A DNA stretch of 64,000 nt from a virus (Duplodnaviria; Caudoviricetes), in the IMG/VR virus record IMGVR_UViG_3300028364_000013; one strand, written 5' to 3'. Positions within the stretch are counted from its first letter, which is position 1. Each line of letters begins with the position of its first letter. A model generated the notes under the pieces. That model saw nothing but the letters and a program-made list of their open reading frames with translations, searched no databases and was not told the origin of the DNA. Made by a program: the position numbers and the translations under genes. Shown here piece by piece: positions 9,283 through 60,055 of this stretch.

Positions 9283-9675
9283 TTATAGACTAGCCTCATA
9301 ATTGATGTAATCTGAATTATTTTCAATTATTATAAGCTCAAATTGCAATCCATCAAATTCATTAATTAAATCATTTTCTAATTTAATAAATGCATCATTT
9401 AAAATTAAATACGAATCTTTATCATAACCCTCTGGAAGTGGTATTTTTACATATCCAGACAAAATTGTTTCAGACTCTGTAATTCTACAACAAGGAATTG
9501 TTATGTATTTTATTGGAAATACCTCTTTAATAAAAAATTCTATTTCATCAATATTATATCCATTTGAATTTTTAATACTAATACCAAAATTACCTTCAAA
9601 CATTGGCGAATATGCATTCACATTATTTTTACAGTAAACTATATTTTTAAATTCTTCTAAAGTTAATTGTTTCAT
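9283..9675 (-). CDS. hypothetical protein
   Basis: 130 aa ORF. Confidence 0.55.
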   Translation of the reverse strand: MKQLTLEEFKNIVYCKNNVNAYSPMFEGNFGISIKNSNGYNIDEIEFFIKEVFPIKYITIPCCRITESETILSGYVKIPLPEGYDKDSYLILNDAFIKLENDLINEFDGLQFELIIIENNSDYINYEASL

Positions 9676-9701
9676 ACATTTTAATTTAAATTCATGATTT
9701 T

Positions 9702-13832: not shown

Positions 13833-14762
13833 ATGAAAAAATTAACAAAAAAAGAATTTATATCCAGAAGCAATGAAATACACAACAAATTTTATGACTA
13901 CCCTCTTATTGAATATAAAAACCAAAATACAAAAGTGATAATTATTTGCCCAGAACATGGAGAATTTGAACAGCGTCCAGACCATCACTTAGCAGGAAGG
14001 GGTTGTAAATTTTGCGCACAAAGCAATAAAAAAAATGATGATACCAGAAAACAACATGCTTCTAATTTTATAAAAAGAGCCACCAAAAAGTGGAATGGTA
14101 AATATGACTATTCCAAAATTGATTATACAACAGCAAGAAATAAAATAATAATTATTTGTCCAGAACATGGAGAACTCCTTCAATCTCCAGACACACACCT
14201 TAAACATGAATGCTTAAAGTGTTCTATAAAAAATCACCCAAACCATCAGAAAAGAACTACTGAAGAATTTATTATCAAAGCCAAAAATATTCATGGAGAT
14301 AGATATGATTATTCCAAAGTAGACTATAAAGGAAATAGAGATAAAGTAGAAATAATTTGCAAAGAGCATGGTTCATGGTGGCAGACTCCTTATAACCATT
14401 TACAAAATAGAGGCTGTAGATGTTGCACCAATAGGTCTAAAGGTGAAATAAAAGTAGAATCACTCCTGAAAGAAAGTGGTATAAATTTTATTAGAGAGAA
14501 AACTTTTGATGATTGTAGAAATCCAAAATCTGGAGCCAAGTTAAAATTCGACTTCTACATTCCAGAAAAAAACTTATGCATTGAATATGATGGTCGCCAA
14601 CATTTTGTCCCAGTTGAAATATGGGGTGGAGAATTAGCTTTAAAAGAAACTAAAAAACGTGATAAAATAAAAAATGGATATTGTCGCAAAAACAATATCC
14701 ATCTCATAAGAATATTCTACAAAGATAATATATCAAAGAAATTATTTTCCCTGTTCTCTTAG
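13833..14762 (+). mobile_element. putative homing endonuclease: DUF723-like Cys/His repeats plus Vsr/DUF559-like nuclease domain
   Basis: three YDYS...IICxEHG...Q.P..HL..C repeats; KFDFYIPEKNLCIEYDGRQH. Confidence 0.78.
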
Positions 14763-15322: not shown

Positions 15323-15469
15323 ATGAAAAATAAAGAAAAAGACGTAGTTTGGCCAATTAGAATGAAGCAAACTTTAAAAGATAAATTTAAAGCTCATTGT
15401 GACAAAAAAGGATACTCAATGAATAAAAGAATGAAGGTGTTAATTGAAAATGATATAAAAGATGCCTAA
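15323..15469 (+). CDS. 48-aa Arc/RHH-like DNA-binding protein (not in ORF track)
   Basis: MKNKEKDVVWPIRMKQTLKDKFKAHCDKKGYSMNKRMKVLIENDIKDA; overlaps ATG of 15462 ORF. Confidence 0.65.
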   Translation: MKNKEKDVVWPIRMKQTLKDKFKAHCDKKGYSMNKRMKVLIENDIKDA

Positions 15470-15920
15470 AAAATTAACAACTAAATCTTTTATAAAAAAG
15501 GCTAATAAAATTCATGGAGATAAATATGACTACTCATTAGTTAATTATATTACAAACAAACTAAAGGTTATAATTATTTGTCCAGAGCATGGAGAATTCG
15601 AACAACCTCCACATGGTCACTTAAAAGGATATGGATGCTATGAGTGTGGTAAGAAAATTAGCCGAAAAGTAACAACTTATGAATTTATTGAGAGGTCTAA
15701 AGAGATTCATAACAATAAATTTGATTATTCTTTAACTGAGCTCAATGGTGTTATGAATAAAGTTAAAATAATTTGTCCAAAACATGGAGTTTTTAATCAA
15801 GCTGCTTATGGACACCTCTCTGGTAGAGGTTGTAATACTTGTAAAAGTTCAAACGGAGAAGAAACAAAAAAATATGGATTAAAAAGAAAGATAGATAAAT
15901 TTTATAAAATTATTGAATGA
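15462..15920 (+). pseudogene. DUF723-like repeat endonuclease lacking its nuclease domain
   Basis: two IICPxHG repeats; homology stops at GCNTCKSSNGEE. Confidence 0.6.
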
Positions 15921-16611: not shown

Positions 16612-16682
16612 TAAACAAATTTACGATTTTTATTTGATAATTAAAAATTTTTATACTATTTATGAATATAAAAATAATCAAA

Positions 16683-17750
16683 ATGAGTAAACGTAAGAAA
16701 AACCTTCATAATATTTATATTTATACACTCAAAGAAAAAGGTGTAGATAAAATAAGGTATATAGGAAAAACTAATAATATAAAAAGAAGACTTCGTGAAC
16801 ACCTAATTGAATCTGTTAAATTAAATAAATCTCACAAACATAAGTGGATTAATTCTGTCTTAAAAAATAGTGGAGAAATAGAAATTAATGTTATTGAGAT
16901 TGTTAATTATAAAAATTGGGAAGAAAGAGAAGTCTATTGGATAAACAAAATTGGTATTTCTAATCTGACAAATTATATTATTGGAGGAAGTGGTGGCAGA
17001 CCTGTTATTGACTATATATCATATGATGATGCTAAAAAGTGGATTTTAGACAACAAAAAAGATGTTGATAAAAAATATAAATGGGATTATTTTTGTAAAG
17101 AAAATGAATTCCCTTATTTTTTACCAAAATGTCCAGAAAAAGTATATAAACAAGAATGGAAGGGGTATGGAGATTTTCTTGGAACTGGAAACAAATCAAA
17201 TAAAGCTATTTCTGAAAATTTTTTAGATTTCAAATCTTCTAAAAAAATAGTATCTAAATTTAATATCAACAATCAAAAAGAATGGATTGTTTTTTGTGCA
17301 TCTGGTAAAAAACCAAAAAACATACCTTCTAATCCTCAGAAAATATATAAAAAAGAATGGAGTGGCTATAAAAACTGGCTCTCAAGTGATAAGTTTTCAA
17401 ATAGAAATAAAATAACTTATGAAGAAGCTAAAAAAATTGCTCATTCTTTAAGATTAAATACATACAAAGAATGGGTGGAATATTTTAAAAACAATAAATT
17501 AGAAAAAATACCTTTTAATCCGCAAAGAACATATAAAGAAAATTGGGAAGGTTGGAAGGTTTGGCTTGGCTCAAAAAGTAGATATATGGATTATGAAAAA
17601 GCAAAAAATATATCACAAAAAATTAATTTAAAAAATAGAGAAGAATGGTTTAAGTATTTTGATGATAATAAATTAATAGACATCCCAAAACATCCACAGT
17701 CAGTTTATTTTGATAAATGGATTAGTTGGAAGGATTGGCTTGGAAAATGA
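16683..17750 (+). mobile_element. GIY-YIG endonuclease with C-terminal integrase-repeat-like units
   Basis: IYIYTL...RYIGKT...RRLREH; repeated YxxAK..EW..IPxNPxxxYKxxWxGWxxWLG; start moved to MSKRKK because TATTTAT overlaps the 16662 ATG. Confidence 0.78.
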
Positions 17751-20969: not shown

Positions 20970-21881
20970 ATGAAAACCTTACAAACCAATATTACTTATA
21001 TATATAACCTATCAAGCTCTGATGAGCCAAATAATGTTAGATACATAGGGAAATCAGATACTCCAAATATAAGAATAAAAAAACATATACAAGAATCAAA
21101 GAGACTTAATTCAACCCACAAACACAGGTGGATTAATAAAAAGATTTCACAAGGATATGAAATTAAGATTAATATTTTAAAAATAGTAAACAAAATGTTT
21201 TGGAAAAATGCTGAAATATTTTTCATAAATTCATTTCAAGATTATGATTTAACAAACTTTGCAAAAGGAGGAAATGGTGGATGTCCAAGCAAGTACACCT
21301 ACTCATATAGTGATACTAAAAATTGGATTAAAAAAAATATAAACGCAAATAGCAGTAGAGAATGGTTTAAATTAACTAAAGAAAATAAAATACCCGACTT
21401 TATTCCAAATGCACCACAAGATGTTTACAATAAAGAGTGGATTAGTTGGAATGACTTTTTAGACTCTAATAACAAGAAACCATCAGATTATAAATATATT
21501 ACATTAAATGAATCTAAAAAATATGTTAATGAAAATTTTAAAGTTAAATCTAAATTAGAATGGAGAGACTTAGTTTTGAGTGGAAAAATACCAGAATCAA
21601 TACCAAGCAGACCAGAAAGATATTACAAAAATAGAGGTTGGACATCTTGGGGTGATTTTTTTGGAACTGATAATAAAGGAACTCATAACGTAGAATATCT
21701 AAATTATAATGATGCAAAAAAATATGTTCAAAACAATTTTAAAAATATAAAAACAGAAAAGCTTTGGAGAGAATTAGTCAAAAACAAATTAATACCAAGT
21801 TTTATCCCAGGAACACCGCAGAGATATTACAATAAAAAGGGGTGGATTAATTGGTATGATTGGTTTGGAAAATCATTCTGA
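20970..21881 (+). mobile_element. GIY-YIG endonuclease with integrase-repeat-like units (paralogue of 16683 gene)
   Basis: YIYNLS...RYIGKS...IKKHIQES...HKHRWI; three EW..IPxxPxxxY..W..W.D repeats. Confidence 0.78.
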
Positions 21882-28475: not shown

Positions 28476-28501
28476 TTATACGCAGATAATAAAAAAATGT
28501 T
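28476..28501 (-). promoter_or_regulatory. AACAT-N14-CGTATAA motif
   Basis: exact match upstream of the nuclease-helicase pair. Confidence 0.7.
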
Positions 28502-28720: not shown

Positions 28721-28746
28721 TTATACGAAGAAATTAAATAAATGTT
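28721..28746 (-). promoter_or_regulatory. AACAT-N14-CGTATAA motif
   Basis: exact match. Confidence 0.7.
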
Positions 28747-33579: not shown

Positions 33580-33605
33580 TTATACGCAAATATATAGATA
33601 ATGTT
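33580..33605 (-). promoter_or_regulatory. AACAT-N14-CGTATAA motif
   Basis: exact match upstream of the methyltransferase. Confidence 0.7.
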
Positions 33606-34001: not shown

Positions 34002-34172
34002 ATGGGAAGAAAAAAAATAGACACAGAAGATAAAAAACAGAAATTATCAGTAACCATATCTCTTGAGAATGCTCTTAATTTCGATGAGCATGAAATCAAA
34101 AATAAATCTAAATTAATTAACTGTCTCCTGATGGAGCATTTCGGATTAAATAAAGGGGATGGTGTCAAATGA
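34002..34172 (+). CDS. 56-aa RHH-like DNA-binding protein (not in ORF track)
   Basis: MGRKKIDTEDKKQKLSVTISLENA...KNKSKLINCLL; ATGA overlap with the nuclease gene. Confidence 0.6.
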   Translation: MGRKKIDTEDKKQKLSVTISLENALNFDEHEIKNKSKLINCLLMEHFGLNKGDGVK

Positions 34173-35116
34173 TTATTACAAAAAATGTTAAAATAAAAAC
34201 AATAGGAAAATCAATTAAGTATTATAAAGATTTAGGGTATCCTGCTGAACATAAAAAAACAATAACCATAGATATTAAAGACTTAACTCTTGGTAGTGAC
34301 ATTTTAATAGAAGCTGCATGCGATTATTGTGGTGATTTAAAAGAACTTTCATACAATAGATATAATAATAGTTTAAAGACTTTGAATCTATTCAGCTGCT
34401 TGAATTGTAGGAAATTTAAAATAGAAGAAATATGCTTAGATAAATATGGAGTTAAAAATGTATCTCAAATAAACGAGGTTAAAATAAAAAAGGAAAATAC
34501 ATGTATGAAAAATTACTCTGTAAAGAATCCATCTCATTCTAAAGAAATTTTAAATAAAATAGGAGACTCATTAGAGAAAAAATTAGGAGTTAGACATGCT
34601 CTGCAAGATAAAAATATACTTAAAAAAGCACAATCAAAAACAGAAGAAAAATATGGAGTTAAACACGCTCTTAAAAATCCTCAACTATTAGAAAAAAGCA
34701 AGCAAACTTGCTTAAAAAATAATGGAGTAGAATTTTGTATGCAATCAGATGTTTTTACAAATAAAGCAAAAAACACAAGAATTGAAAATGGTACGCAAAT
34801 TCCTGATGAATTAGTTGACAAATGGGAATTATATAAAAGAAAAGTTAGAAACGAAACTAATAAGTATAAAAAATCTCTTTTTAAAGAATGGGATGGATAT
34901 GATTTTTATGATAATGAATACATAAAAGATAATTTAGATAACTTTAAACCAAGAAATCCAAACTACCCCTCAATAGACCACAAAATAAGCGTAAGCTATG
35001 GGTTTTTAAATGATATATCAGAAAAAACTATAGGAAATATAGAAAATCTATGTATTACAAAAACAATGATAAATTGTTCAAAAAAAGAACTAAACTATAA
35101 TGAGTTTATTTTATAA
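34169..35116 (+). mobile_element. putative homing endonuclease: Zn ribbon, KYGV.N repeats, HNH-like C-terminus
   Basis: CDYCG/CLNCR; KYGVKN/KYGVKH repeats; SIDHKIS...NIENLCIT...INCSK. Confidence 0.65.
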
Positions 35117-36348
35117 CACTCCTTTCTAATTTTAATCAACATATTATTTATCAACTCTCTATCAATTTCATTAGGTAAATCAGAATTTACAAATAAATCA
35201 TCTATAATTAAAAGTTCTTTCTCAGCCCATTCAATTATATCTTGAAGGTTCTCTTCCCCTCTTCTTATTGATTTAAGATATTCTGCATCTGGTCTTCTAA
35301 TAACAAACTCTTTTCTTTCTGCTATTTCACGAGACATTCTAATAAGTCTAACTAAATGCATTATATTTTTAGAATCAATTTTCTGATTATGCCCTTTATT
35401 ATCAACATACCTTTGTTCATTCCTATTATTAATCCAATCTATGTATGACTTATAATCTTTACAATGTTGAGAATATCCATCTTTATTAAAGATTATATTA
35501 CAAATTGCTTCTTCTCCTTTTGGAATTGATGAAAGTCTAAGTTGGTTTGATACTCCTGCATTGTCAGATTCACCAACTTTTTGAATTCCTTTATACCCTA
35601 ATCCAACAGCATTACCCTTTTGTTTATAAATTAATTTATTGTGTTCCTTATTAGATTCTGATTCATCAATAGAAAAACAATTGGAGGCTATAGAATCAAA
35701 AAACAACGCATAAACATCACGAGCATTAGACACATTAACAACACCACAAAATTTTTGAACATCACTGTTATATCCATTATTTACAAACCAAGTATTCAAA
35801 GGTATTGTTTTTTGACCATTAATCACATAACAGAAATCAAATATATCTTTTCGAGTTACTTTATCTTTTTCCCAATTTTGTTTTTTATCAAGCCCTTTTG
35901 CTTTTTTACATTGAGCTACAGCATATCCTGCAAAACTATTTTTACACATCTTTGTAACAAAGTCTTCCTTTTTATTTAAAATAACATCAAAAATAGGGTG
36001 CTTATAAATTACACAGTCTTCAGGTGAAAACAAAATAGATAAAGTTGTTGGATTAGCTTTTTGCAAAAGCTGTAAAAATCTTTTAACTTCATAAAACACA
36101 GCGTCATCTTTTTCTTTATCTCCAAAGTCTGATTTACCCTTTTTTTCGTCTATTTGTTCAATATAATTGAATCCGAAAATATCTTCTTTTGATTGTAAAA
36201 ATACTCCAGCAATATCTAAATCTGAAGTCGGAAGATTTGTTCCATATGCTTGAGAACCAACAACAACTATAAATAAAGGTATTGCTCCATTACATTTTGA
36301 ATTAATTAAGTCAAAATATTTATTTTTAATTACTTCCTTATCTTTCAT
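35095..36348 (-). CDS. DNA polymerase beta-superfamily nucleotidyltransferase (RlaP-like)
   Basis: VGSQAYGTNLPTSDLD, YEVKRFLQLL..ANP, KNIMHLVRL. Confidence 0.82.
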   Translation of the reverse strand: MKDKEVIKNKYFDLINSKCNGAIPLFIVVVGSQAYGTNLPTSDLDIAGVFLQSKEDIFGFNYIEQIDEKKGKSDFGDKEKDDAVFYEVKRFLQLLQKANPTTLSILFSPEDCVIYKHPIFDVILNKKEDFVTKMCKNSFAGYAVAQCKKAKGLDKKQNWEKDKVTRKDIFDFCYVINGQKTIPLNTWFVNNGYNSDVQKFCGVVNVSNARDVYALFFDSIASNCFSIDESESNKEHNKLIYKQKGNAVGLGYKGIQKVGESDNAGVSNQLRLSSIPKGEEAICNIIFNKDGYSQHCKDYKSYIDWINNRNEQRYVDNKGHNQKIDSKNIMHLVRLIRMSREIAERKEFVIRRPDAEYLKSIRRGEENLQDIIEWAEKELLIIDDLFVNSDLPNEIDRELINNMLIKIRKECYKINSL

Positions 36349-36455: not shown

Positions 36456-36481
36456 TTATACGAAATTGATTATAAAATGTT
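36456..36481 (-). promoter_or_regulatory. AACAT-N14-CGTATAA motif
   Basis: exact match. Confidence 0.7.
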
Positions 36482-43126: not shown

Positions 43127-43158
43127 CAAATTTACTTCTTTATTTAACTTCATCCAAA
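43127..43158 (-). promoter_or_regulatory. Bacteroidota-type promoter (TTTG-N20-TAAATTTG) upstream of the nicotinamidase
   Basis: both boxes match; -33 box lies inside the dnaJ 3' end. Confidence 0.55.
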
Positions 43159-44231
43159 TTTTTCTTCAAATCTCTTAATTGTTCGATAAGGTGAATTTCA
43201 TCTTCAGAATATTCTTCTTGAATAATAAGGTCAAGCTCTACCATGTAATTTCCAAAAGCTCCTTCTGGGGCTGCAGATACACTAAAGTTCTTGCCCAAAT
43301 TCAACATTGGCATTCCATAACCTTTTAGTCTGAATACTTTGCGATTTTGAGTTCCAGGCTTAATTACAAGGTTTGTAACTTTGCCATGAATAGTTGGAAT
43401 CTCCATCTTTGTTCCTAATGCAAGGTCTTCAAAACTAACTTTATGTCTATAAACTAAGTCTTTTCCAAATCTCTCAAATTTATCATGAGCAATTTCCTGA
43501 ATAGTAAAAATAGCATCACCTCTCATTCCTCCTGGATATACTGAATAATGACCCTTTTGCTCTGTCATAAGACTCTCTCCATTTTGAACTCCTCTTGGAA
43601 ACGTTATGATAGCATTTTCAGTTTCAATTACAGTACCTTGTCCTTTGCAGTCCGAGCAGTTTTCGTCAATTATAACTTTTGCACCTTGGCACACATTGCA
43701 GGTAACTATATCTTGTCTTGTAAACGCCCCCATATTTTGAACTACAGCTCTATGCCCAGTTCCTCCACATGTAGTGCAAGAATGATAAGCAGTACCACCC
43801 TTAGCTCTGGTTCCATGACAACTTCCACAAACCTTTTTAACATTAAAAGGAACCTCTTTTGTACATCCAGTGTAACACTCTTCAAGAGTAAGCGCTATTT
43901 TTATAACAACATTATGACCCCTTTGTCTCATCATCTCCTGCTCTCTCCTAAGCTCTTCAAACATTTCTCTGGCAGAACTTCCAAATCCTCCTCCAAAACC
44001 TTGTTTGCTTGCGCCTTCCCAGTTGTGACCATACTGGTCATATAATTTTCTTTTCTCTGGGTCGCTAAGAACATCGTTTGCTTGGTTTAGTTCTTTAAAC
44101 TTTTCCTCTGCATCTGAGTCTCTAGGATTAACGTCTGGATGATACTTCTTAGCAAGTTTTCTGAATGCTTTTTTGATGTCAGCATCAGCAGCGCTTTTTT
44201 GAAGCCCTAATATTTCGTAATAATCTCTCAT
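43140..44231 (-). CDS. dnaJ: DnaJ chaperone
   Basis: J domain HPD; four CxxCxGxG-like Zn repeats; C-terminal peptide-binding domain. Confidence 0.93.
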
Positions 44232-46171
44232 TATAATCTTGGGTCAATTTCTCGTTCGTTTCTTTCTTCAATTACCATCTCACCAAAAGCTTGCACATAA
44301 TGCGCATTTTCTTTGCTGATTTTGTTATATGGAATTTCAAGCAATCTTTTTCCTATTTCCCACTCGTTAACAGATGTTTCCAATTTTCTGAACACTTTTT
44401 TTCTGTTAATAAGCTTTTCAAGTTTTGTGGACATCAAGTAATCTGGTCCATAAATAATTGTCAAGTATCTTGGGTTTCTAACCTTCATTGCAGGAACTAC
44501 ACCTTTAACATAAACAGTCAATGGCTTAAGCATTATTCCCTCCATTTCTTCATCAATGGTAGTCGTATCATAAAACGCTTTAAGCTTCTTAAGGTCTTCT
44601 TCACTCTCAAGGTCAACAACAATATAGTTATCGCTATTTATGGCTTTGTAGATGTCTTCATTTGAAGCGTCAAAGAATAATTTCTCTGCTCCACCTGTGA
44701 ACACTTGCTTTAAGATAGAGAAAGGCTTAAAGTGAACTTCTCCTTCAGAACCGTAAAGCTCAATCTGACGAGAGTAAATCTTAATCATTGCATCAAAATC
44801 ATCTATGCTATCAAATTCTCTGATGTAATCTTTTATTGCTCTAAACGTTCTTTCGTTGTTAGAACCAACCTGATTGATTATATCTTTTCTTGATGTCTTG
44901 TGAGATATTGTTTCAAAATCACAATCTTTATAAGGGCCGTTAACAATTTCGTTAAGAGCTTCTTCAAAACCGTTTTCTTTAAGGAATTCTATCTCACTGG
45001 TAACAGCTTTGTCAACAGTTACAAAATTTCTTTCAATCAACCCTTTTCCAATTGAAGACCAAGGAAGAAGTTCTGCATCCAATATAAGAAGCTCAGTTTT
45101 ACCTTCAAATGCTTCTTTTATAAATGGAATCTCATAAAGAGGCTTGTACGCTTCAGTAAGGTCAAGATTCTCTGGCTTAACCATATAACCCTGTCTTGTT
45201 GTAGTATAATTCTTGCTTGAGTCTTTAAAAAGGTAGATATTAGCTCTTGAACCCATGTATTTAGGTTGTGCTATAATCTTGGTAACTCCATTTTTTCTGA
45301 AATATTCCACCCCTTTATCAAGAGACTCTAATTCACTTTCTTGAAGGTAAATATCTTTATTCTCGTCTCTAACAATGTTTTTATCCGCAGGACATATTGT
45401 TCCAGACACAAAGTTTACACTCTGCTCTGAAGCGTGGAAAATCCTCCCCCTCTCTTTGCCTTCCAGGTTATCCATAGAGATTCTTGGAGGAGGAGTAAAG
45501 AAGAAATCATTTAACTCTTTCTTAACAATGTTTTCATTTGTTGCAGGAGTTTTTCTTGAGATATTTCTACCAAACGGGTTGATAATAATAGAACTCAAGT
45601 GCCCACCGCTAACTGCACCGCTATCAAGGTTTACTTTGTTTGCTTTAATTGCAATCCCTCTTGTTGAAACGTGTCCAAACAAATGGTAAGGCAAAGAACG
45701 ACTTGCTTGCTTTCTAAAGAATCCGAAAAACTTAGACTTTGCAGCCAAGTAATCTTGCGGAGTATCAAACTCTGCTTGCTTAGGGTACACAATCGTTCTC
45801 TGATTTCTTTCTGAAACAGAGCCAAGTTTACCAAGGTACTTCTGGTCACAAGGAGCATGAGTAACAATAAAGTGGTCAGACTTCAAAAATGGCTTCATAA
45901 CTTCGTAGATGTCAAAAAACTTTTGCTTAAGCTCTTCGTCTGCTTCGAAAGTTTTAATGCTATCAAAGTAAGTGTCCATCACATCTTGTGGTGGCAAATC
46001 CTTGGCAGCCATATCATTCTTAAGAAATCTGTATACGAAATTCTCATGATTACCTCTAACCATGTAGAACATATCCATGTTATTGTGAATTAACTCAATA
46101 ACAGAACGAACATCATAACCTTTGTCTATAACGTCTCCACATAAAATGATGCGTTTTTCTTTTTTTTCCAT
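44231..46171 (-). CDS. pnkp: Pnkp C-terminal part: remainder of phosphoesterase plus adenylyltransferase/ligase domain
   Basis: GDVIDKG, GNHE, THAP, GH; [37 protein letters not shown]. Confidence 0.85.
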
Positions 46172-46195
46172 ATTTATTAATGTAACTTATAACAG

Positions 46196-46221
46196 TTATA
46201 CGCAAATTTAATAAAAATGTT
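46196..46221 (-). promoter_or_regulatory. AACAT-N14-CGTATAA motif serving the Pnkp C-terminal gene
   Basis: exact match 24 nt upstream of ATG 46171. Confidence 0.72.
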
Positions 46222-46228
46222 TCAAAAT

Positions 46229-47263
46229 ATGGGAAAAAAATGGACAAATAATGATTTTATTTTTTTAAAAGAAAATTATCCAAAAAAAGGCGCTCAGTAT
46301 TGCTCTGAAAAATTAAATAGAACTGTGCAGTCCATTCAAACTATGACTAATAAATTAAATATTAAATTATCTAAAGAAATTAAATCAAAAATACTAAAAC
46401 AAAGTCATATAAAAAAGTTTGACGAATACAAAATTAATCCACAACAATTTATACAAATAAACACCCCTGAAGTTGCATACTTTCTTGGATTTATTTGGGC
46501 AGATGGTAGTGTTTGCAAAAAAACGTACAAAATCACTTTGGAAATAATAAAAGATGATTTAGATACTATTTTACCTAATCTTAATAAACTTGGAGAGTGG
46601 AATATGTATGAAAGAGATAGGAATGATTGGAAGGCTCAAAAATCAATATCAACAAGTAATTATCACATACACTCTTTTTTATCTGAAAATGATTATTTAA
46701 TAAAATCTACAGCATCACCAGATAAAATTATTTCTAAAATTCCAAAAGAATTAAAACATTATTTTTTTAGAGGCTTAATTGATGGAGATGGACACTGGCA
46801 AAACAAAGGTGGAAATTATTATTTTTGCATAGCAGGTACTAACGAACAAAATTGGAATTCTTTTGAATTGATGTTAAAAGAAATAAAAATATCTAACTAT
46901 AAAAAAGAATTGCAAATAAACAAAAAAGGTGGTGGCTCTATTTTAAAAATAACCAACAAAAAAGATATTGCTAAACTTGGTGATTATATTTATAAAAACT
47001 ACGAAAATTACCAAATAGGATTGCCAAGAAAATATGAAATTTATAAATCTATAAAAGAAAAATCTTCAGTTAACAGACATTTAACAAAAGAACAGAGAAA
47101 AATTGCAAGAGAAAAAAACTTAGGAACAAAAAACCCAAACTACAAGCATGTTGATATTAATAAGATAAAAGAGTTAAGGAAAAATGATTATTCTCTTAAA
47201 AAAATAGCCATTGAATTAGGTGTTAGCACTACTATTGTTTCAGATAGATTAAAAAATAAATAA
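46229..47263 (+). mobile_element. LAGLIDADG homing endonuclease inserted antisense within pnkp
   Basis: AYFLGFIWADGSV and FFRGLIDGDGH; start likely MGKKW at 46229 (track gives 46217). Confidence 0.85.
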
Positions 47264-47268
47264 TTTAT

Positions 47269-47520
47269 TTAGTAATCATAATCATCTGGATAATGATAAC
47301 CCTCTCTATTACAATTTTCACAATGCAGAGTTCCGTCATCTCCACTATTTATGTGCTCATCATTTTTAAAATGTTCTTGATAATATGAATGTGTATCTAA
47401 TTTTGTTTTCTCTTTATCAGAACTCCACCCACAAGATTCATGATTATCAGAGAAAGGTTTATCACACAAGTCTGTCACTGAAAATTGTTTTTTACACACA
47501 CAACACAACACTATGTCCAT
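47269..47520 (-). CDS. small Cys/His-rich hypothetical protein inside the pnkp interruption
   Basis: CCVC...C...C...HCENC. Confidence 0.5.
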   Translation of the reverse strand: MDIVLCCVCKKQFSVTDLCDKPFSDNHESCGWSSDKEKTKLDTHSYYQEHFKNDEHINSGDDGTLHCENCNREGYHYPDDYDY

Positions 47521-47579
47521 TACAACAAGAGCGCATTGTTATACCATTATCATCAGATTTATATAAACTTTTATTCACA

Positions 47580-48350
47580 TTAACCATCGTCTTTATGTCC
47601 TAATATTTTCTTATTTTCTTTATCAATTACAAACCCATTCTTTTCAAGAAGAGCAACAAATTCATCATAACACCCGTGGATGTCACCAATTGTTACGTAA
47701 TCAAAACCAGAAGGAAGAATACATTCTTGGTATTTATCGTAATCAATTATATCAATACTGTAATCATCAAGGTTATGAGATTTAATCTTTGTAATGTTGT
47801 TAAAAGTCTTTTTACTTACTTCTGACATTACACTTTCTCTCATGTATTTGATTTGACGAGAAGTAACAGCTTTGCTTTCCTCATCCTGAGAAAGGAACTC
47901 GTAGTATGGTTGTCTTCCTTTGTAGTCAAACATTACTACAGCAATGTTGTAGTTATTATCGTCAGCAATTCTTTTAATAGAATCTCTAAAATCTTTACTA
48001 AGACCAGTTGAGTCAACGACAACGAAATCAGCGTTAACTGGGTATGAAGTAAGAGCTCTCACTCTTGCATCAAGAAGTTCGAACGCTGGCTTACTTGCGT
48101 AAAGCATTTTTGCATCTTTCTTTGAAAGAGTTTGGTCTCCAAGAATTTCTCTACGAATTTCATCAGAAGCAATGTGATGAATTTTCACATCACCCTTAGC
48201 TTTTAATTCTGGAATTAATTTGTTTTCAGTAAAGTAAGTTTTACCACATCCAGAAGGCCCAATCAAAAAAACGATTGTATTCATTCTCAATTCAATCTGA
48301 GTAATATCAGACTTAGTTTTCGCTTTTATTTTAAGAGTTTCTTCTTGCAT
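47580..48350 (-). CDS. pnkp: Pnkp N-terminal part: polynucleotide kinase plus first phosphoesterase motif
   Basis: IGPSGCGKT, SDEIR, VVDSTGL; C-terminal IGDIHGCYDEF. Confidence 0.85.
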   Translation of the reverse strand: MQEETLKIKAKTKSDITQIELRMNTIVFLIGPSGCGKTYFTENKLIPELKAKGDVKIHHIASDEIRREILGDQTLSKKDAKMLYASKPAFELLDARVRALTSYPVNADFVVVDSTGLSKDFRDSIKRIADDNNYNIAVVMFDYKGRQPYYEFLSQDEESKAVTSRQIKYMRESVMSEVSKKTFNNITKIKSHNLDDYSIDIIDYDKYQECILPSGFDYVTIGDIHGCYDEFVALLEKNGFVIDKENKKILGHKDDG

Positions 48351-48356
48351 ATTATA

Positions 48357-48382
48357 TTATACGTTATTTTTTAAAAAATGTT
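48357..48382 (-). promoter_or_regulatory. AACAT-N14-CGTATAA motif
   Basis: exact match upstream of Pnkp-N. Confidence 0.7.
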
Positions 48383-48392
48383 TTCTGTTTTG

Positions 48393-49703
48393 TTACTTAA
48401 ATTTTACAATAAATCCTTGACTTGGTGTTACACCGTCAACAACATCTCCAATTCCAAACCATTCAGCTAACTCAATTCTGTTATTTGGCATTTCAAGAAC
48501 ATCGTTCATAAAATCCTCAAATTCTTCTCTTGTTGGCTCCCAATCATGGTCATCATGACGCATTCCTTCCATAAAGTAGTTATCATTAAATCTTGCATCT
48601 GGAGTTGTAACAATAAGAGTGCTAACGTTGCATCCAAGAATGTCATTCATTAACAACTTAGCATCTTCAATTGGCATGTGCTCAATAACCTCAGTGCAAA
48701 CAACATCAAGTTTTTTTTCTTCATCATAATTGTGATGCTCTGTTTTCATAAACCCCTTGACAGACTCAAAGAAATGAACATTCTTCATGCTCTTTTGCTT
48801 AACTCTCTTTTCGGCCTTAGCTCTCTCAACTGGGTCAATGTCCACAGCAAAATAATCTTTGTCCTTCATGAATCTATTGAACCTGGTGATGTACTTTCCT
48901 TCGCCACAACCAACATCAAGAATGTTGTTATTGAATTCAAGCCTATCTTGTATTGCCATTTGTCTGGCTTGCCATGTGTTACCAAGAGTCATAGTGATTT
49001 CATTCTTTCTATTTTTAGAAAGCTCTTCCTGCAGACCTCTGAATAACTTAAAGTTTTCAAGAAATCTAATCTTAAATAAGTATCTCACAAAGTAAGGAGC
49101 ATCCAAAATATTCATACACCTAATGTATTTAGACGCACTCTCTTCACTCACAAACATTGGTTCATTATTCACAATCGCTTGGAAGATAGAAAATAGACTT
49201 GCGAAATTTAATAATTCGTAAATAGATTTTTTAGTAGTGATTGTGATTTTATAGTTTTTTCCAGAAATTAATTCAGAATTAACCTCAAACCCTGGAAAGT
49301 AATCTTGAAATGCACTTATGTATCTTTCGTTTTTAACATATATCATGTTAATGAAAAATGTGCTCTCAAGTCCACCTTCATCTTTTTTATCTCCATCTGG
49401 AGCAGTGTATTCATCACTTTTAAATGCTGAACGAAACATTTCATCAATTGCGCTAACAACAAATGAAGCAGAATTATATCTACTTGTATTAAGGTATTCA
49501 AACGTTTCTCCTTCATAAGATGGGAATGAAACTTCATCACTACCATCTTTAAAGTAGATATTAAAACTTTGTTCATTGCCTTTGGTGAAAAACCCAAACA
49601 CAACTCCTTGTTTAATATTCTTTGCTACCAACCCTGTTCCAGGATTCTTTTTTATGATAAAGGAAAAATCCTTATTATCACTTTTCAATTGAACTATGCT
49701 CAT
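48393..49703 (-). CDS. hen1: Hen1 3'-terminal RNA ribose 2'-O-methyltransferase
   Basis: ILDVGCGEGK, TEVIEHM, TTPD..FN, MRHDDHDWEPTREEF; adjacent to pnkp. Confidence 0.85.
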   Translation of the reverse strand: MSIVQLKSDNKDFSFIIKKNPGTGLVAKNIKQGVVFGFFTKGNEQSFNIYFKDGSDEVSFPSYEGETFEYLNTSRYNSASFVVSAIDEMFRSAFKSDEYTAPDGDKKDEGGLESTFFINMIYVKNERYISAFQDYFPGFEVNSELISGKNYKITITTKKSIYELLNFASLFSIFQAIVNNEPMFVSEESASKYIRCMNILDAPYFVRYLFKIRFLENFKLFRGLQEELSKNRKNEITMTLGNTWQARQMAIQDRLEFNNNILDVGCGEGKYITRFNRFMKDKDYFAVDIDPVERAKAEKRVKQKSMKNVHFFESVKGFMKTEHHNYDEEKKLDVVCTEVIEHMPIEDAKLLMNDILGCNVSTLIVTTPDARFNDNYFMEGMRHDDHDWEPTREEFEDFMNDVLEMPNNRIELAEWFGIGDVVDGVTPSQGFIVKFK

Positions 49704-49915
49704 CAGCTATTGTTTTTTGTACATTTATCATATTCTACCATTACTCTATCATGTTCATCATTAATAAAGTCAGTGAAATACTTAATCTTCTGTGTAGGAG
49801 ATAGATTTTTTGATTTGTCCTTATGCTTATGGTTAACAATCTTTATTGCCTCTTTAAAAGCAACAATGCTTGCCATAGCAGTGTCTAACATGTAATCTTT
49901 TGATATATCGTCCAT
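49703..49915 (-). CDS. hypothetical protein
   Basis: 70 aa ORF coupled to hen1. Confidence 0.55.
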   Translation of the reverse strand: MDDISKDYMLDTAMASIVAFKEAIKIVNHKHKDKSKNLSPTQKIKYFTDFINDEHDRVMVEYDKCTKNNS

Positions 49916-49937
49916 AAAAATCTCGTATAGTAGTTAG

Positions 49938-49963
49938 TTATACGATATTTTTTATAAAATGTT
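49938..49963 (-). promoter_or_regulatory. AACAT-N14-CGTATAA motif
   Basis: exact match heading the hen1 unit. Confidence 0.7.
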
Positions 49964-49971
49964 CTTAAAAT

Positions 49972-50448
49972 TTAACAAGAACTGCAAGAACCATCATCAC
50001 AATCTGCATCTCCACCATTTCCAATGTTTTTTTGGATTAATTTGTTAATGTTTTGATTGATGTGGTTTTTTCCAAACTTCTTATCTAACTCTTCAGAAAG
50101 AATCTCGTGTGCTAACTTCTTTCTTGGTGCCAATCCAAACTCTACAGCAATCACCTTCTTAGCGTCATCAATTGCATTGTTAAATATGTCGTTAGCAACT
50201 TGTCTTGATTCTTTTTTTGCAAGAGCATCGTGTAGAGCAATCATGTCTTCATCATCTTCTAAAATTGCTTTTAGGTTGTCCCAGTTTAAAACTGCATACT
50301 TGATGAAACCTTTTTGAATTACTTTCTTTAGACCTTCTGCTCTTTCAATTCTTTCTCCTTCATCTTCTGGAGCTAACAATTGTGGTTGAACAAAATATTC
50401 TTGAATGAAACCTCTAAGGTCTTCATTAATTGTCATGTCTTCTTTCAT
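49972..50448 (-). CDS. hypothetical protein with C-terminal CDDGSCSSC
   Basis: 158 aa ORF. Confidence 0.6.
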   Translation of the reverse strand: MKEDMTINEDLRGFIQEYFVQPQLLAPEDEGERIERAEGLKKVIQKGFIKYAVLNWDNLKAILEDDEDMIALHDALAKKESRQVANDIFNNAIDDAKKVIAVEFGLAPRKKLAHEILSEELDKKFGKNHINQNINKLIQKNIGNGGDADCDDGSCSSC

Positions 50449-50451: not shown

Positions 50452-51165
50452 TTATCTATTTGATTTATCAGGGTTTTGTGGAGTTGTCTTATTTATAATT
50501 CTTGCAACATTACCCTTAAGTTCCTCTTTGTCGTATTTGTCAATGAGGTGTTCATGTAAAATCTCATGTTCTTTTTTGACTCTTTCTCCATAGTTTTCAT
50601 TACCCATTAGTGGTATAAACACCTTTTGAAGAATCCTTGCTATATTGTAGGCATCATCATCTCCTCTGTGTGGTGTCCCTTCAAATTCTAACCCAAGATG
50701 GTCTAAAGCTTGTCCAACACCAAGGTCTGTACCTATTCCATAGGCAATACTAAACAAAGGCTTCATGTTTATGTGAGTTCTACCAAATGGATACTTTACA
50801 CCCTTTGCTTCACAATCTCTTTCGAACTGCTTTCTATCATATTCACCCCAACTCATCCATATCCTATCGCTGGACTTAAATTTATCTTTAAGAATATTAC
50901 AAGCTTCTTCAAAACTAACACCATGCTCTTCGAGATACTCATCTGTAAGCGTAGTTAATTCGTTACAAAACTTTGATACAGTTGAATATTCTGGTTTAAC
51001 TATGATTGTATCCTTGAGTCTAATTTCTTTTGTCTTGTAATCAACAGCAGAAATTCCAATCTCAATTATCTCACTCTTCATCCCCTCTGGAGTTGGATGG
51101 TCCCAACAGGTAGCTTCCACATCAATCAACAGAACTACATCTCTTTTCATTTTTCTTCTTCCCAT
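50452..51165 (-). CDS. DEDDh exonuclease (ERI-1/KapD-like)
   Basis: IDVEATC, EIIEIG, SWGEYD, HRGDDDA. Confidence 0.87.
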   Translation of the reverse strand: MGRRKMKRDVVLLIDVEATCWDHPTPEGMKSEIIEIGISAVDYKTKEIRLKDTIIVKPEYSTVSKFCNELTTLTDEYLEEHGVSFEEACNILKDKFKSSDRIWMSWGEYDRKQFERDCEAKGVKYPFGRTHINMKPLFSIAYGIGTDLGVGQALDHLGLEFEGTPHRGDDDAYNIARILQKVFIPLMGNENYGERVKKEHEILHEHLIDKYDKEELKGNVARIINKTTPQNPDKSNR

Positions 51166-51166: not shown

Positions 51167-51709
51167 TTAATTTCTTTTTATATATTCTGGTGGAACTTCA
51201 TCAGTCAGATAAACACCATTTTCAGAAATGTAAATTTTATGACCATCAGCTCTAAATCTCATGGCTTCAACTTCAAGAATTTCAAACTCACCCCTTCTTG
51301 AACCTACTTTTGCAGCAGTTTCTTTATCAATACTCAAGTGAACGTGATGCCTATTCATTTTCTTCAACCCCTCTTTCATTATTGCATCAATAACTCCCAC
51401 TGGAGCTCCATGATAAAGTGTTACTGGAGGCATAATTTCTGAAAGCTCCAAGTCAACTTTAACTGAGTGACCTTGGTTTGCTCTTATGCTACAAAAATCT
51501 CCACTCAAAGAAAATCTTTGTTTCTCATTATTTTGAACCACGTATTTAAGCTCATTAAAGTCGAACAATAAATTGCTACTCGCCTTTTCAATTAACTCTC
51601 TAACATCTGTCCAACCACTTGAGTTAAGCTTAATTCCAATGTCTTCTGGTTTGTGTCTCAACCAATATGACAATGCTTTGCTTATTTTTTTTTCTCTACT
51701 CTTTTCCAT
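51167..51709 (-). CDS. kptA: RNA 2'-phosphotransferase (Tpt1/KptA)
   Basis: SYWLRH, KQRF, IRANQGHS, LYHG, RHHVHLS. Confidence 0.92.
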   Translation of the reverse strand: MEKSREKKISKALSYWLRHKPEDIGIKLNSSGWTDVRELIEKASSNLLFDFNELKYVVQNNEKQRFSLSGDFCSIRANQGHSVKVDLELSEIMPPVTLYHGAPVGVIDAIMKEGLKKMNRHHVHLSIDKETAAKVGSRRGEFEILEVEAMRFRADGHKIYISENGVYLTDEVPPEYIKRN

Positions 51710-54810: not shown

Positions 54811-56352
54811 CTACGCTAATTCCTTAATTTTATTAAGTAGAGCTTCAATTCTTGCTTTAGTTTCTTTAGAACCAATTACATACATTACATCTGGCAGTTG
54901 TGGGCCAGAGGCACCTCCACAAATAGCCACTCTAAGCATTGGCATTATTTTACCAACACCAATGTTCATATTACCAGAGATGTGCTCAAGTTCATACCTA
55001 ATGTTCTTGGGTATCCAGTCGTATTCCTCGAAATTACTCATGAAGTCATCAGCTGCAAATACATTCATAACCTTTATAAACTCTTCAACGTTCTTCATCT
55101 TGATTTCACCTTCAAGAGTAGGAGTATTATAAATGTAGCTCAAGCTATCTTTTAGTTCGTGAGAAAATTCAACACGCTCAACAGCCATACTTGCAATTAA
55201 ATCAAGTTTGTCATGGTCCATAGACAAAAGGAAGTCTTCTGGCATATCAGTCATTTCCGACAGAATAGAGTCAGCATCCCTCGACCTTAAGTAATGAGAA
55301 TTGAAGTTCATCAATTTCTTCTTATCGAACATTGCACCAGCCTTATTAACACTTTCAAGACTAAATAAATCAATCATTTCTTTGATTGACATTATTTCTA
55401 CATTGTTCTTAGGATTCCAGCCAAGAAGAACTAAGAAGTTTAAAAGAGCATCTGGCTCGTAACCTTCATGCTTAAACCCAGTTACATGAGCTTTTTTGTC
55501 CTCATGAGTGATATAGTCCCAAGTCAACGGGAAAATAGGGTAGCCATACTTATCTCCATGTCTCTTGCTTAATTTCTTTCCATCATCTCCAAGAAGAAGT
55601 GGTAAGTGAGCAAAAATAGGAGCATCCCATCCAAAAGCTCTATAAATAAGAACATGAAGTGGCGTAGCAGATAACCACTCTTCACCACGAATAACATGAC
55701 TAATTTCCATTAACTTATCATCAACAATATTTGCAAGATGATAAGTAGGGAGTCCGTCAGAAGATTTCCAGATAACTTTGTCATCAAGGTCTTTCGTATT
55801 GAACTTAACCCATCCTCTAACTTCATCATGAAACTTAATATCTTCAGCTCTTGGCATTTTAAACCTAATTGTATACGCTTCTCCAGCATCAATCTTAGCT
55901 TTAGCATCACTGGCAGACATTGTTAGTGAGTTTTTCATTCTTTCTCTAACAACGCCAGTGTAACCACCTTTAACTCCAGCAGCCTCAAAGTCATCTCGCA
56001 TCTTTGTCAAGTCTTCTTTTGTATCAAATGCATAATAAGCATTTCCAGACTCAACAAGCATTTCAACATGCTCTTTGTAAATATCTTTTCTTTCAGATTG
56101 GATGTATGGCCCATGGTCACCACCTATGCCGTAACCTTCGTCTGGACTTATTCCAAGCCACTTAAGAGAGTCTGTTACATAATCAATTGCTCCATCAACC
56201 TCTCTGCTTGAGTCGGTATCTTCAATCCTTAAAATAAAATCGCCCCCATGCTTCTTGGCAAAGAGGTAATTAAATAAAGCAGTTCTCACGCCACCTATAT
56301 GCAAAGGTCCCGTGGGACTTGGTGCAAATCTTACTCTTATTTTCTTATCCAT
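54811..56352 (-). CDS. gltX: glutamyl-tRNA synthetase
   Basis: RFAPSPTGPLHIGG, LRIEDTD, HVIRGEEW, KLSKRHG. Confidence 0.95.
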   Translation of the reverse strand: MDKKIRVRFAPSPTGPLHIGGVRTALFNYLFAKKHGGDFILRIEDTDSSREVDGAIDYVTDSLKWLGISPDEGYGIGGDHGPYIQSERKDIYKEHVEMLVESGNAYYAFDTKEDLTKMRDDFEAAGVKGGYTGVVRERMKNSLTMSASDAKAKIDAGEAYTIRFKMPRAEDIKFHDEVRGWVKFNTKDLDDKVIWKSSDGLPTYHLANIVDDKLMEISHVIRGEEWLSATPLHVLIYRAFGWDAPIFAHLPLLLGDDGKKLSKRHGDKYGYPIFPLTWDYITHEDKKAHVTGFKHEGYEPDALLNFLVLLGWNPKNNVEIMSIKEMIDLFSLESVNKAGAMFDKKKLMNFNSHYLRSRDADSILSEMTDMPEDFLLSMDHDKLDLIASMAVERVEFSHELKDSLSYIYNTPTLEGEIKMKNVEEFIKVMNVFAADDFMSNFEEYDWIPKNIRYELEHISGNMNIGVGKIMPMLRVAICGGASGPQLPDVMYVIGSKETKARIEALLNKIKELA

Positions 56353-56358: not shown

Positions 56359-56384
56359 TTATACGATATTTTGATTAAAATGTT
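56359..56384 (-). promoter_or_regulatory. AACAT-N14-CGTATAA motif
   Basis: exact match upstream of gltX. Confidence 0.7.
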
Positions 56385-58602: not shown

Positions 58603-60000
58603 TTATAATTTACCTGGTGTTCTTGGGAAAAGAGTCACATCTTTTATGTTCTTCATACCCGTTGCAAATTGAACCAATCTTTCAAACCCTAATCCGAAAC
58701 CAGAGTGAGGTGCTGAGCCAAATCGTCTTGTATCAAGATACCAACTCATTTCTTCATGAGATATTCCAAATGCAGTCATTTTATCTTCAAGCACACCAAG
58801 TCTTTCTTCTCTCTGACTTCCGCCAACTATTTCTCCAATTCCAGGAAAAAGAATATCCATTGCAGCAACAGTTTTTCCATCTTCGTTATCACGCATATAG
58901 AATGCTTTGATTTCTTTTGGATAATCTGTAACAATTACTGGAACCCCTTTGAAGTGTTTCTCAACAAGATACCTTTCATGCTCTGACTGGAAATCCATTC
59001 CCCAATCTTCTACTGGGAATTCAAATTTACCTTTCTTTGCTGGCTTTGAGTTCTTAAGAATATCAAAAGCTTCAGTATATGTAACTCTTTCAAACTTGGT
59101 AATAGCTACATCTTCGAGCTTATCTCTAAGAGGAATACTTCTATCCTCTTTTTTCATGTTCTTTTCCTCTTCTTGAATATACTCATCAAGATAATCAATT
59201 TCAGCAGAACACTTCTGCAAAACATATCCTATAACATTTCTAAGATATGCTTCAGCAAGCATTGCTGTATAGTCAAGGTCGGCAAATGAAATCTCTGGCT
59301 CAATCATCCAGAACTCAGCAAGATGTCTTGATGTCTGACTTTTCTCTGCCCTAAATGTTGGACCGAATGTATAAACTCTACCAAGCCCAAGAGCTGCAGT
59401 TTCAGCTTCAAGTTGTCCAGACACAGTTAGACCCGCATCCTTTCCAAAAAACTCAATAGCCTCATCTACTCTAAACATTTCTCCAGCTCCTTCACAATCA
59501 CTTCCGCTTATAATAGGTGTATCAACCTGAATGAAACCTCCTCTATCGAAAAACTCGTGAGTCGCCATCTTAAGTTGGTGTCTTATTCTGAATATTGCTT
59601 GAAATAACTTTGTTCTTGTTCTTAGATGTGGATGAGCTCTAAAAAACTCCATCGAGTGTCTTTTTGGTTGCATTGGATAATCTTCTCCAGCTGCCCCTAT
59701 CAACTCTACAAATGCAGCATCAAAATCAACAGCTTGTTCTGAACCTTTTGATTCAACAGCTGCTCCAACAACTCTAATTGACGCTCCAGATGAAAATCTA
59801 GTTAAGTCAATTCCAAGTTCAGCACTAACAACCACTTGTAGGTTTTCAAACGTAGAGCCATCATAAAATACAATAAAAGAAACATTCTTGCTACCTCTTA
59901 TCGTTCTTATCCATCCAAATAATTCTACTTCTTCTCCAAATTTAATTAGAGGCATCTGCTCTGATGCTGTCAATATTGAAAATACACTTGCTCGTTTCAT
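58603..60000 (-). CDS. asnS: asparaginyl-tRNA synthetase
   Basis: GWIRTIR, LTVSGQLEAE, FGPTFRAE...RHLAEFWMIEPE, IVGGSQRE, GFGLGFERL; start trimmed to MKRAS. Confidence 0.92.
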   Translation of the reverse strand: MKRASVFSILTASEQMPLIKFGEEVELFGWIRTIRGSKNVSFIVFYDGSTFENLQVVVSAELGIDLTRFSSGASIRVVGAAVESKGSEQAVDFDAAFVELIGAAGEDYPMQPKRHSMEFFRAHPHLRTRTKLFQAIFRIRHQLKMATHEFFDRGGFIQVDTPIISGSDCEGAGEMFRVDEAIEFFGKDAGLTVSGQLEAETAALGLGRVYTFGPTFRAEKSQTSRHLAEFWMIEPEISFADLDYTAMLAEAYLRNVIGYVLQKCSAEIDYLDEYIQEEEKNMKKEDRSIPLRDKLEDVAITKFERVTYTEAFDILKNSKPAKKGKFEFPVEDWGMDFQSEHERYLVEKHFKGVPVIVTDYPKEIKAFYMRDNEDGKTVAAMDILFPGIGEIVGGSQREERLGVLEDKMTAFGISHEEMSWYLDTRRFGSAPHSGFGLGFERLVQFATGMKNIKDVTLFPRTPGKL

Positions 60001-60029
60001 AATTTTTTTTATATTCTGTCCACAATACA

Positions 60030-60055
60030 TTATACGCAAAATATGAGCAAATGTT
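60030..60055 (-). promoter_or_regulatory. AACAT-N14-CGTATAA motif
   Basis: exact match upstream of asnS. Confidence 0.7.

Follow-up and report, generated by a model that had tools for sequence, protein, structure and literature searches.

What becomes of an RNA repair enzyme when a mobile element settles within one of its catalytic domains? This question is raised by the pnkp gene in a 64,000-nucleotide (nt) stretch of phage DNA (Caudoviricetes; IMG/VR record IMGVR_UViG_3300028364_000013), hereafter called the window. In the single-chain Pnkp proteins of the Pnkp-Hen1 systems of Clostridium thermocellum and Anabaena (PMC3675462), a kinase, a binuclear metallophosphoesterase and a ligase follow each other in this order, and the phage locus has the same order of domains and an adjacent Hen1 gene. 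However, the phage domains do not lie on a single polypeptide. A stop codon (TAA, 47580-47582) ends the N-terminal open reading frame (ORF), Pnkp-N, and the C-terminal one, Pnkp-C, begins with an ATG of its own at 46171, on the other side of 1408 nt. On the comparisons described below, we consider it quite probable that a homing LAGLIDADG cassette splits pnkp, that the two products reassemble noncovalently, and that the split outlives the endonuclease.

Anatomy of the split gene

Pnkp-N consists of a P-loop kinase (AAA_33, 6e-09; phrog_505 polynucleotide kinase, 1.8e-09) and a GDIHG motif, and it ends at 47580, as a first reading of this DNA without database searches (the sequence-only reading) had described. 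After the kinase it reads ...VTIGDIHGCYDEF..., and its end lies 14 residues past the helix downstream of GDIHG, the motif that provides its metal ligands, D223 and H225. In an alignment of 45 sequences, the kinase and phosphatase residues G36, K37, D63, R66, R122, D223, and H225 of Pnkp-N are invariant. Pnkp-C also has the content first ascribed to it, namely GDVIDKG, GNHE, H105, and G166-H167 in this order, followed by the ligase domain (PNKP_ligase PF16542, 9e-31) with its motif KYMGS. Its phosphatase residues are D13, D16, N41, H42, H105, and H167, and D13, N41, H42, E43, H105, and H167 are unchanged in every split allele. Across 44-45 sequences, all split forms among them, the catalytic residues of the kinase and the phosphatase, GNHE/GH included, do not vary.

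Alignment with 14 uninterrupted homologues places the break in the variable loop that separates motif I (GDxHG) from motif II (GDxxDKG) and shows the fold to be complete. Therefore, the ligands are partitioned and no motif is cut. The original description of a split through the active site is right in that the metal ligands are divided between the ORFs, and can be refined in one point, as the break itself runs through a loop. All the GDxHG, GDxxD(R/K)G, GNH(D/E), H, and GH ligands are present, but they are spread over two ORFs. Profile comparison gives the same division: the N piece covers positions 5-203 of phrog_246 and the C piece positions 202-404, and in the solved phosphatase domain of C. 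thermocellum (4J6O) chain positions 16-40 match Pnkp-N residues 220-244, whereas positions 59-236 are matched by Pnkp-C. In the structure of the C. thermocellum enzyme (CthPnkp), Asp187 and His189 of motif I bind one Mn2+ together with Asp233, and the second metal site is formed by Asp233, Asn263, His323, and His376 (PMC3675462). These six residues correspond to the phage metal ligands. Thus, unlike in the single-chain enzyme, the equivalents of Asp187 and His189 are on one phage polypeptide, and those of Asp233, Asn263, His323, and His376 are on the other. Past the native fold, the halves carry tails of ~14 residues (N) and ~6 residues (C).

The region has no megablast match among 50,697 phage records, and tblastn against phage records found only distant Pnkp-like genes of jumbo phages (28-31% identity). 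In a large protein collection, the closest relatives of the C half are uninterrupted Pnkp proteins of 898-907 amino acids (aa) with 83-89% identity, and intact alleles overall span 890-907 aa; 9 of the 28 closest C-half clusters comprise proteins of 646-653 aa with the same start as Pnkp-C, and nine N-half clusters of 239-264 aa stop where Pnkp-N stops. Eleven loci (L001-L011) were retrieved for comparison, and the break of the window recurs, with conserved tails and start region, in at least seven other metagenomic loci. Four loci (L001, L009, L010, and L011) have an intact pnkp in the same gene neighbourhood with nothing at the break site. Among the split alleles, L002 carries the same 1.4-kb insert as the window, L004 has an orthologous antisense endonuclease, L003 contains 2.9 kb of small ORFs from which the endonuclease is gone, and L008 contains a 510-nt insert with two small ORFs. 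In L006, the C half is preceded by more than 4 kb of small ORFs. L005 holds the C half and an orthologous endonuclease with no N half within 6 kb upstream, and L007 holds Hen1 and the N half with no C half within 8 kb downstream; both missing partners were checked by tblastn.

Across the split loci the inserts range from 0.5 to 2.9 kb, and only the 5' end of the endonuclease gene, the promoter, and the leader are common to them. All split alleles share the N-tail IDKENKKI(I/L)G(H/Y)K and a C-head reading MQKKEK or MEKKEK, and they likewise have the promoter, leader, and ATG in common, with L008 lacking the promoter. The endonuclease has been lost, with the break and intact halves retained, in L003, L006, and L008, and in L003 a remnant of its 5' end still lies beside the promoter.

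The insert, first described as about 1.4 kb with an opposite-strand endonuclease, is indeed of that kind. It is AT-rich, with a guanine-plus-cytosine (GC) content of 0.26 versus ~0.35 in the flanks, and it encodes a two-motif LAGLIDADG protein whose motifs ...GFIWADGSV... and ...GLIDGDGHW... are kept in four orthologues. Although this ORF can also be read from a first in-frame ATG at 46217, its true start is probably the conserved MGKKW ATG at 46229, because orthologues in other loci begin at MGKKW. Orthologues occupy the same site in L002 (100% nt identity), L004 (71% aa), and L005 (68% aa), and a ratio of nonsynonymous to synonymous divergence (dN/dS) of 0.20-0.27 among them points to purifying selection.

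The edge of the insert also bears regulatory signals. The motif AACAT-N14-CGTATAA has 13 exact copies in the window versus 0.38 expected (0 of 100 shuffles reach 13), and 12 of the 13 are on the coding strand of backbone genes, ahead of the start codon. From this position and recurrence, we infer that it is a promoter. The exact copy 24 nt upstream of the Pnkp-C ATG (46196-46221, minus strand) was already part of the sequence-only reading, which held that the C half had been re-equipped with a promoter and a start codon; the other split loci likewise keep both at the edge of the insert, the motif being exact in L002, L003, and L005, altered by one mismatch each in L004 and L006, and lost in L008. 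Its AACAT overlaps the ATG at 46217 of the opposite-strand endonuclease ORF. Pnkp-N has its own copy, and the intact allele L001 shows the same layout of motif (2865-2890) and ATG (2897). An ATG exactly 6 nt past CGTATAA is found at four motif sites (48357-48382, 56359-56384, 28721-28746, and 36456-36481), and this spacing suggests leaderless mRNAs (probable for Pnkp-N), with the motif as a -10-like element. As the same motif class stands before the Hen1-side small ORF, Pnkp-N, and Pnkp-C, both halves and Hen1 share one signal class. The leaders of the other motif copies in the window show no similarity that would point to an intergenic ancestor of the cassette. Three other motif sites (6209-6234, 28476-28501, and 33580-33605) have a common leader, caag-W-tagaaccaataa. 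A scan of 44000-50200 for sigma-70-type promoters was uninformative (24 sites versus 26.4 in shuffles), and the same interval has four terminator-like sites versus 2.0 expected, none of them at the junctions.

The plus-strand motif ATATTTATTA, proposed at the outset as a signal for the endonuclease gene, does overlap the Pnkp-C ATG. The plus-strand TATTTATT may plausibly serve as endonuclease promoter; ATATTTATWA has 12 copies in the window versus 2.4 expected from shuffles, but the sites are not consistently ahead of genes. ATATTTATTA is unaltered where the endonuclease remains (four loci) and changed in L003 and L006, which lost it.

Mobility of the cassette

Comparison of alleles demonstrates that the cassette has moved between pnkp genes. 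On a tree of the C half from which the junction region was left out, split and intact alleles are interleaved, and seven state changes are needed, forced by well-supported branches. Over the whole gene, identity is 73-86% in four split/intact sister pairs, but it drops to 17-60% in the ~120 nt around the break; conversely, split alleles that are otherwise 67-71% identical reach 71-97% in these ~120 nt. The inserts of the window and L002 differ at 2 of 1408 positions (99.9% identity), and their endonuclease genes are identical at every nucleotide, despite a synonymous divergence (dS) of 0.36-0.99 in distal pnkp. The flanks of these two alleles are 80-90% identical, with identity increasing towards the junction, and the co-converted tract of the C half extends over ~23 codons in the window and ~36 in L002. 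The interleaved tree, the replaced junction flanks, and the near-identical insert in diverged pnkp genes together indicate that the cassette moves by homing with co-conversion of its flanks. The endonuclease would be expected to cleave intact alleles.

Selection on the halves and their predicted fit

Both halves evolve under constraint. The kinase, the two parts of the phosphatase, and the ligase have dN/dS values of 0.04-0.17, and split/split and split/intact pairs are alike in this respect; for the 38-codon phosphatase stub on the N half, it is 0.03-0.05 in three pairs. At the junction tails, L003 and L004 differ with a dS of 1.6 and a dN/dS of 0.04, versus 0.47 for the same loop between intact alleles, which indicates that the split state is old and that the tails are more constrained than the loop from which they derive.

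A heterodimer prediction, suggested earlier as a check, was carried out with Pnkp-N and residues 1-240 of Pnkp-C, together with three controls. The complex scored 0.94, and the best control 0.00. Among 80 solved complexes 58 reach this mark, as do 2 among 110 mismatched pairs; these counts hold only roughly here because the alignments were our own. At least 98% of contacts recur between runs, the partner has a predicted local distance difference test (pLDDT) value of at least 89, and in the model a strand of the N half (residues 218-221) is paired with residues 7-10 and 192-196 of the C half.

Several points weigh against our overall explanation. With the single-chain phosphatase domain already solved (4J6O), the predictor may simply have reproduced a known structure, and the complex model shows that the halves fit this fold rather than that they bind each other. 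The terminal branches of split lineages are longer than those of their intact sisters (0.067 vs 0.046, 0.057 vs 0.045, and 0.25 vs 0.18), which could reflect a mild relaxation of selection. Pairwise dN/dS mixes the time before and after the split and, where the cassette is recent, as in the window itself, is hardly informative on how the split form is selected. The activity of the promoter, the separate translation of the halves, and their association are predicted from the sequence. Also, the assignment of L005 and L007, whose halves lie apart, to a single genome is no more than likely.

Proposed mechanism

We propose that a free-standing LAGLIDADG cassette inserted in the loop between metallophosphoesterase motifs I and II of the pnkp of a large lake phage. 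The cassette supplies four parts, i.e., the stop codon of Pnkp-N, the antisense endonuclease gene, a promoter motif of the phage type, and a short leader with an ATG, from which translation would restart six residues ahead of motif II. The outcome is two genes, Pnkp-N and Pnkp-C, under one putative promoter class. Most likely, their products would come together again noncovalently, as fragments that complement each other to form the phosphatase beta-sandwich, with a binuclear metal site built from D223 and H225 of the N chain and D13, N41, H105, and H167 of the C chain. Phosphatase activity of the paired halves, with the metal site assembled in trans, would be expected, as would Hen1-dependent ligation. 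The cassette spreads by homing, taking along ~50-100 nt of flank on each side, and the split persists once the endonuclease is lost.

A further proposal, which we put forward tentatively and rate at slightly less than an even chance, is that the cassette is a self-rescuing gene-splitting module and not simply a tolerated endonuclease gene. The travelling unit would comprise the endonuclease 5' end, the promoter, the leader, the ATG, and both tails; the tails would serve as assembly elements; and the break would be permanent, a landing pad holding 0.5 to 2.9 kb or more, with halves that can become separated. In L003, accessory genes do seem to have used the break as a landing pad, as the gap between the halves (3146-6000) contains eight small ORFs, one of them with a GmrSD_N-like domain. 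The C half of L005 (6001-7941) and the N half of L007 (3321-4052) come from one JGI sample and one Logan run but are carried by separate contigs. These two contigs likely belong to one genome, and the gene order around the halves suggests a rearrangement with its breakpoint at the split site.

Alternative explanations

The most serious alternative, although an unlikely one, is that the phosphatase is dead and the gene has been sub-functionalised, with Pnkp-N as a free kinase, Pnkp-C as a Hen1-dependent ligase, and healing of 3' ends done elsewhere or unneeded. It is consistent with the autonomy of the kinase module of bacterial Pnkp and the formation of a separate heterodimer by the ligase and Hen1(N) (PMC3675462), with the natural occurrence of separate kinase-phosphatase and ligase proteins in Pnkp1-Rnl-Hen1 (PMC4411300), and with the non-adjacent halves of L005 and L007. 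However, the phosphatase residues on both pieces are invariant in all split alleles, the low dN/dS of the N stub (three pairs) and of the C part is unexpected in a dead domain, and the tails at the break are under stronger constraint than the loop that they replaced. A selfish element inside a gene is also the default picture of inactivation, and the slightly longer terminal branches of split alleles would suit a pseudogene whose two ORFs are decaying. This we regard as very improbable, since at least eight loci of 58-92% aa identity retain full-length ORFs with the same stop and start, the catalytic residues, and a dN/dS of ~0.1; neither frame has been lost between L003 and L004 despite their junction dS; and the halves are retained in lineages without the endonuclease.

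Removal of the insert after transcription or translation, by a group I or II intron, a split intein, or ribosomal bypass, would restore a single chain. Phage genes are often interrupted by self-splicing introns with LAGLIDADG or GIY-YIG genes, and there are known 'fractured genes' in which split inteins flank a gene for an endonuclease (PMC2677866). At this locus, however, no Rfam family, intron families included, reaches the gathering score on either strand of 45900-47900; cmscan of this interval at E up to 10 returned a single match, to a snoRNA (E 0.96), and a conserved ribozyme core of the group I type was not found there. The tails, at ~14 and ~6 residues, are too short for intein halves and have none of their terminal motifs. 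Furthermore, the inserts vary in length and share only the parts named above, the endonuclease gene runs antisense to pnkp, Pnkp-C has a conserved promoter and ATG of its own, and in the phage represented by L005 and L007 the halves are on separate contigs. Restoration of a single chain thus appears even less probable than gene decay, and the absence of an intron, together with the uninterrupted alleles of close relatives, bears out the initial view that a free-standing endonuclease gene was inserted in pnkp. Least probable of all, with next to no chance in our estimate, is a chimeric contig that put foreign DNA in pnkp. The window is a metagenome assembly and the GC content of the insert is below that of its flanks, but the same layout occurs in independent samples and assemblers (L002, JGI; L004, Logan), both junctions are covered at ~94% identity by one contig of run X3 (5976 nt), and the right junction is also crossed, with zero differences, by a 661-nt contig of run X4. 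An assembly error at the junctions, on which the sequence-only reading would have fallen, is thereby excluded.

Relation to known systems

Split pnkp belongs with the 'genes in pieces' kind represented by nrdA-a/mobE/nrdA-b of phage Aeh1. In both, a phage enzyme gene is interrupted by the gene of a free-standing homing endonuclease, two separately translated polypeptides share an active site without RNA or protein splicing (predicted in the case of pnkp), and short tails at the new C and N termini stem from the insertion. The tails of the split NrdA of Aeh1 are essential (PMC3045599), and the constrained junction tails of pnkp recall them. The differences are considerable. MobE is of the HNH type and encoded on the same strand, whereas the pnkp endonuclease is a LAGLIDADG protein encoded antisense; the target of the latter is an RNA repair enzyme, with the break inside a single beta-sandwich domain; and the pnkp tails are mostly old loop with 4-6 new residues. 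In addition, the insert edge carries a promoter of the phage's own class, and alleles with the insert, without it, and with an endonuclease later lost are available. While function has been demonstrated for Aeh1 NrdA (Crona et al. 2011, PMC3045599), split pnkp is known from sequence.

The Pnkp1-Rnl-Hen1 system of Capnocytophaga gingivalis is likewise a multi-protein version of Pnkp-Hen1, a complex of three proteins that forms a heterohexamer (Wang et al. 2015, PMC4411300; PDB 4XRP/4XRU), and its Rnl is the closest relative of the ligase part of Pnkp-C. This part (44231-45451) matches 4XRP_B Rnl at 4.9e-54, with KYMGS aligned, and much more weakly the ligase domain of C. thermocellum Pnkp (1.5e-19). 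However, the Capnocytophaga proteins are divided between phosphatase and ligase, with whole domains and no mobile element, whereas the phage enzyme is divided inside the phosphatase and its ligase is still fused to most of that domain. The 'fractured genes' of environmental phage-like DNA (Dassa et al. 2009, PMC2677866) resemble split pnkp in being a gene in two with a free-standing endonuclease between the parts, but they restore one chain by trans-splicing of split inteins, and split pnkp is without intein blocks.

A full-text literature search with partial coverage of journals turned up neither a split Pnkp nor an endonuclease gene inside pnkp, and within this scope the locus is the first such case for the Pnkp-Hen1 RNA repair system. 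If our proposal is true, Pnkp would be the second well-documented type of enzyme cut by a homing endonuclease into two genes whose products together rebuild the active site. The repair complex would then have a third architecture, (N-C-Hen1)2, beside Pnkp-Hen1 and Pnkp1-Rnl-Hen1, and enzymologists would have a ready-made split metallophosphoesterase. Whereas Aeh1 is a single example, pnkp offers a population of alleles that are intact, recently invaded, anciently split, without endonuclease, or with halves moved apart, and because the whole population is available, the life cycle of the element and the features that reduce its cost can be read from natural data. The feature that stands out is a mobile cassette that would bear the signals and tails to neutralise its own damage; if the self-rescuing module is real, nature has run, and repeatedly sampled, an experiment in fragment complementation of a binuclear metallophosphoesterase.

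Gene neighbourhood and other features

The backbone genes of the pnkp stretch are all on the minus strand (Table 1). The adjacent Hen1 has both the Pnkp-binding N domain and the methyltransferase that characterise the Pnkp-Hen1 system.

Table 1. Coordinates of the split pnkp gene, its cassette, and neighbouring features in the window
Feature	Position	Strand	Remarks
Tpt1	51167-51709	-	match 9.5e-47
RNase T-type exonuclease	50452-51165	-	backbone gene
158-aa ORF and 70-aa ORF	between RNase T-type exonuclease and Hen1	-	backbone genes
AACAT-N14-CGTATAA before 70-aa ORF and Hen1	49938-49963	-	exact match
Hen1, 436 aa	48393-49703	-	PF22032 Hen1_N 1.3e-67 (Pnkp-binding N domain) and methyltransferase families (2'-O-methyltransferase)
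AACAT-N14-CGTATAA of Pnkp-N	48357-48382	-	exact match; ATG 6 nt after motif
Pnkp-N, 256 aa	47580-48350	-	polynucleotide kinase and first strand and helix of phosphatase fold
Left co-converted flank (N-half tail, residues ~239-256, ...IDKENKKILGHKDDG)	47583-47636	-	common to split alleles, unlike closest intact allele
Inserted cassette, 1408 nt	46172-47579		no counterpart in intact alleles L001, L009, L010, L011
83-aa Cys-rich ORF	47269-47520	-	variable passenger region, doubtful gene
Two-motif LAGLIDADG homing endonuclease, free-standing, 344 aa from MGKKW	46229-47263	+	antisense to pnkp; PF14528 1.5e-09, phrog_4645 2.6e-25, C-terminal helix-turn-helix
AACAT-N14-CGTATAA of Pnkp-C	46196-46221	-	exact match; 24 nt ahead of ATG
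ATATTTATTA overlapping Pnkp-C ATG	46170-46179	+	candidate promoter element for endonuclease
Right co-converted flank (Pnkp-C head, residues 1-23)	46103-46171	-	
Pnkp-C, 646 aa	44231-46171	-	remainder of phosphatase fold and ligase domain
DnaJ	43140-44231	-	backbone gene

The small Cys-rich ORF noticed at first in the insert is present, but it is doubtful as a gene because it is frameshifted in the two nearest cassette copies (L002 and the run X3 contig) and absent from the remaining cassettes, which hold unrelated small ORFs at this place. A run of A at 47488, with six residues in the window and five in both of these copies, decides whether the ORF is open. It has no match in Pfam or PHROG and only nameless atlas neighbours, with an atlas model pLDDT of 0.38, and we have rejected it as a part of the mechanism.

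The RNA-repair neighbourhood of split pnkp comprises Tpt1, the RNase T-type exonuclease, and Hen1, with a RlaP nucleotidyltransferase (35095-36348) 8 kb off. The window also encodes tRNA synthetases of the glutamyl and Asp/Asn/Lys types (54811-56352 and 58603-60039); aminoacyl-tRNA synthetases and other traits of very large phages thus mark this DNA, and the window contains no tRNA genes. Public runs that contain the stretch are lake and salt-lake metagenomes. In L004, a 444-aa ORF (7944-9278) with a J domain and a DUF723 domain of the homing-nuclease type lies directly before a complete DnaJ (9259-10359) and is possibly a second gene of the block that was remodelled by a mobile nuclease.

Eight plus-strand ORFs of at least 120 aa in the window do not merely overlap a minus-strand gene, and all are antisense to backbone genes. 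Seven of them are homing-type nucleases, namely two LAGLIDADG proteins (the pnkp one included), two DUF7487/TnsA-like, two DUF723, and one GIY-YIG; those other than the pnkp endonuclease are at 2649-3452, 8131-9255, 13833-14762, 15462-15920, 16662-17750, and 34169-35116. The eighth (20970-21881) belongs to no family. As all the family-assigned ORFs of this set are homing-type nucleases, the genome is generally rich in homing elements. Three of the nuclease ORFs (starting at 2649, 34169, and 46217) are head-to-head with the AACAT-N14-CGTATAA motif of the next backbone gene.

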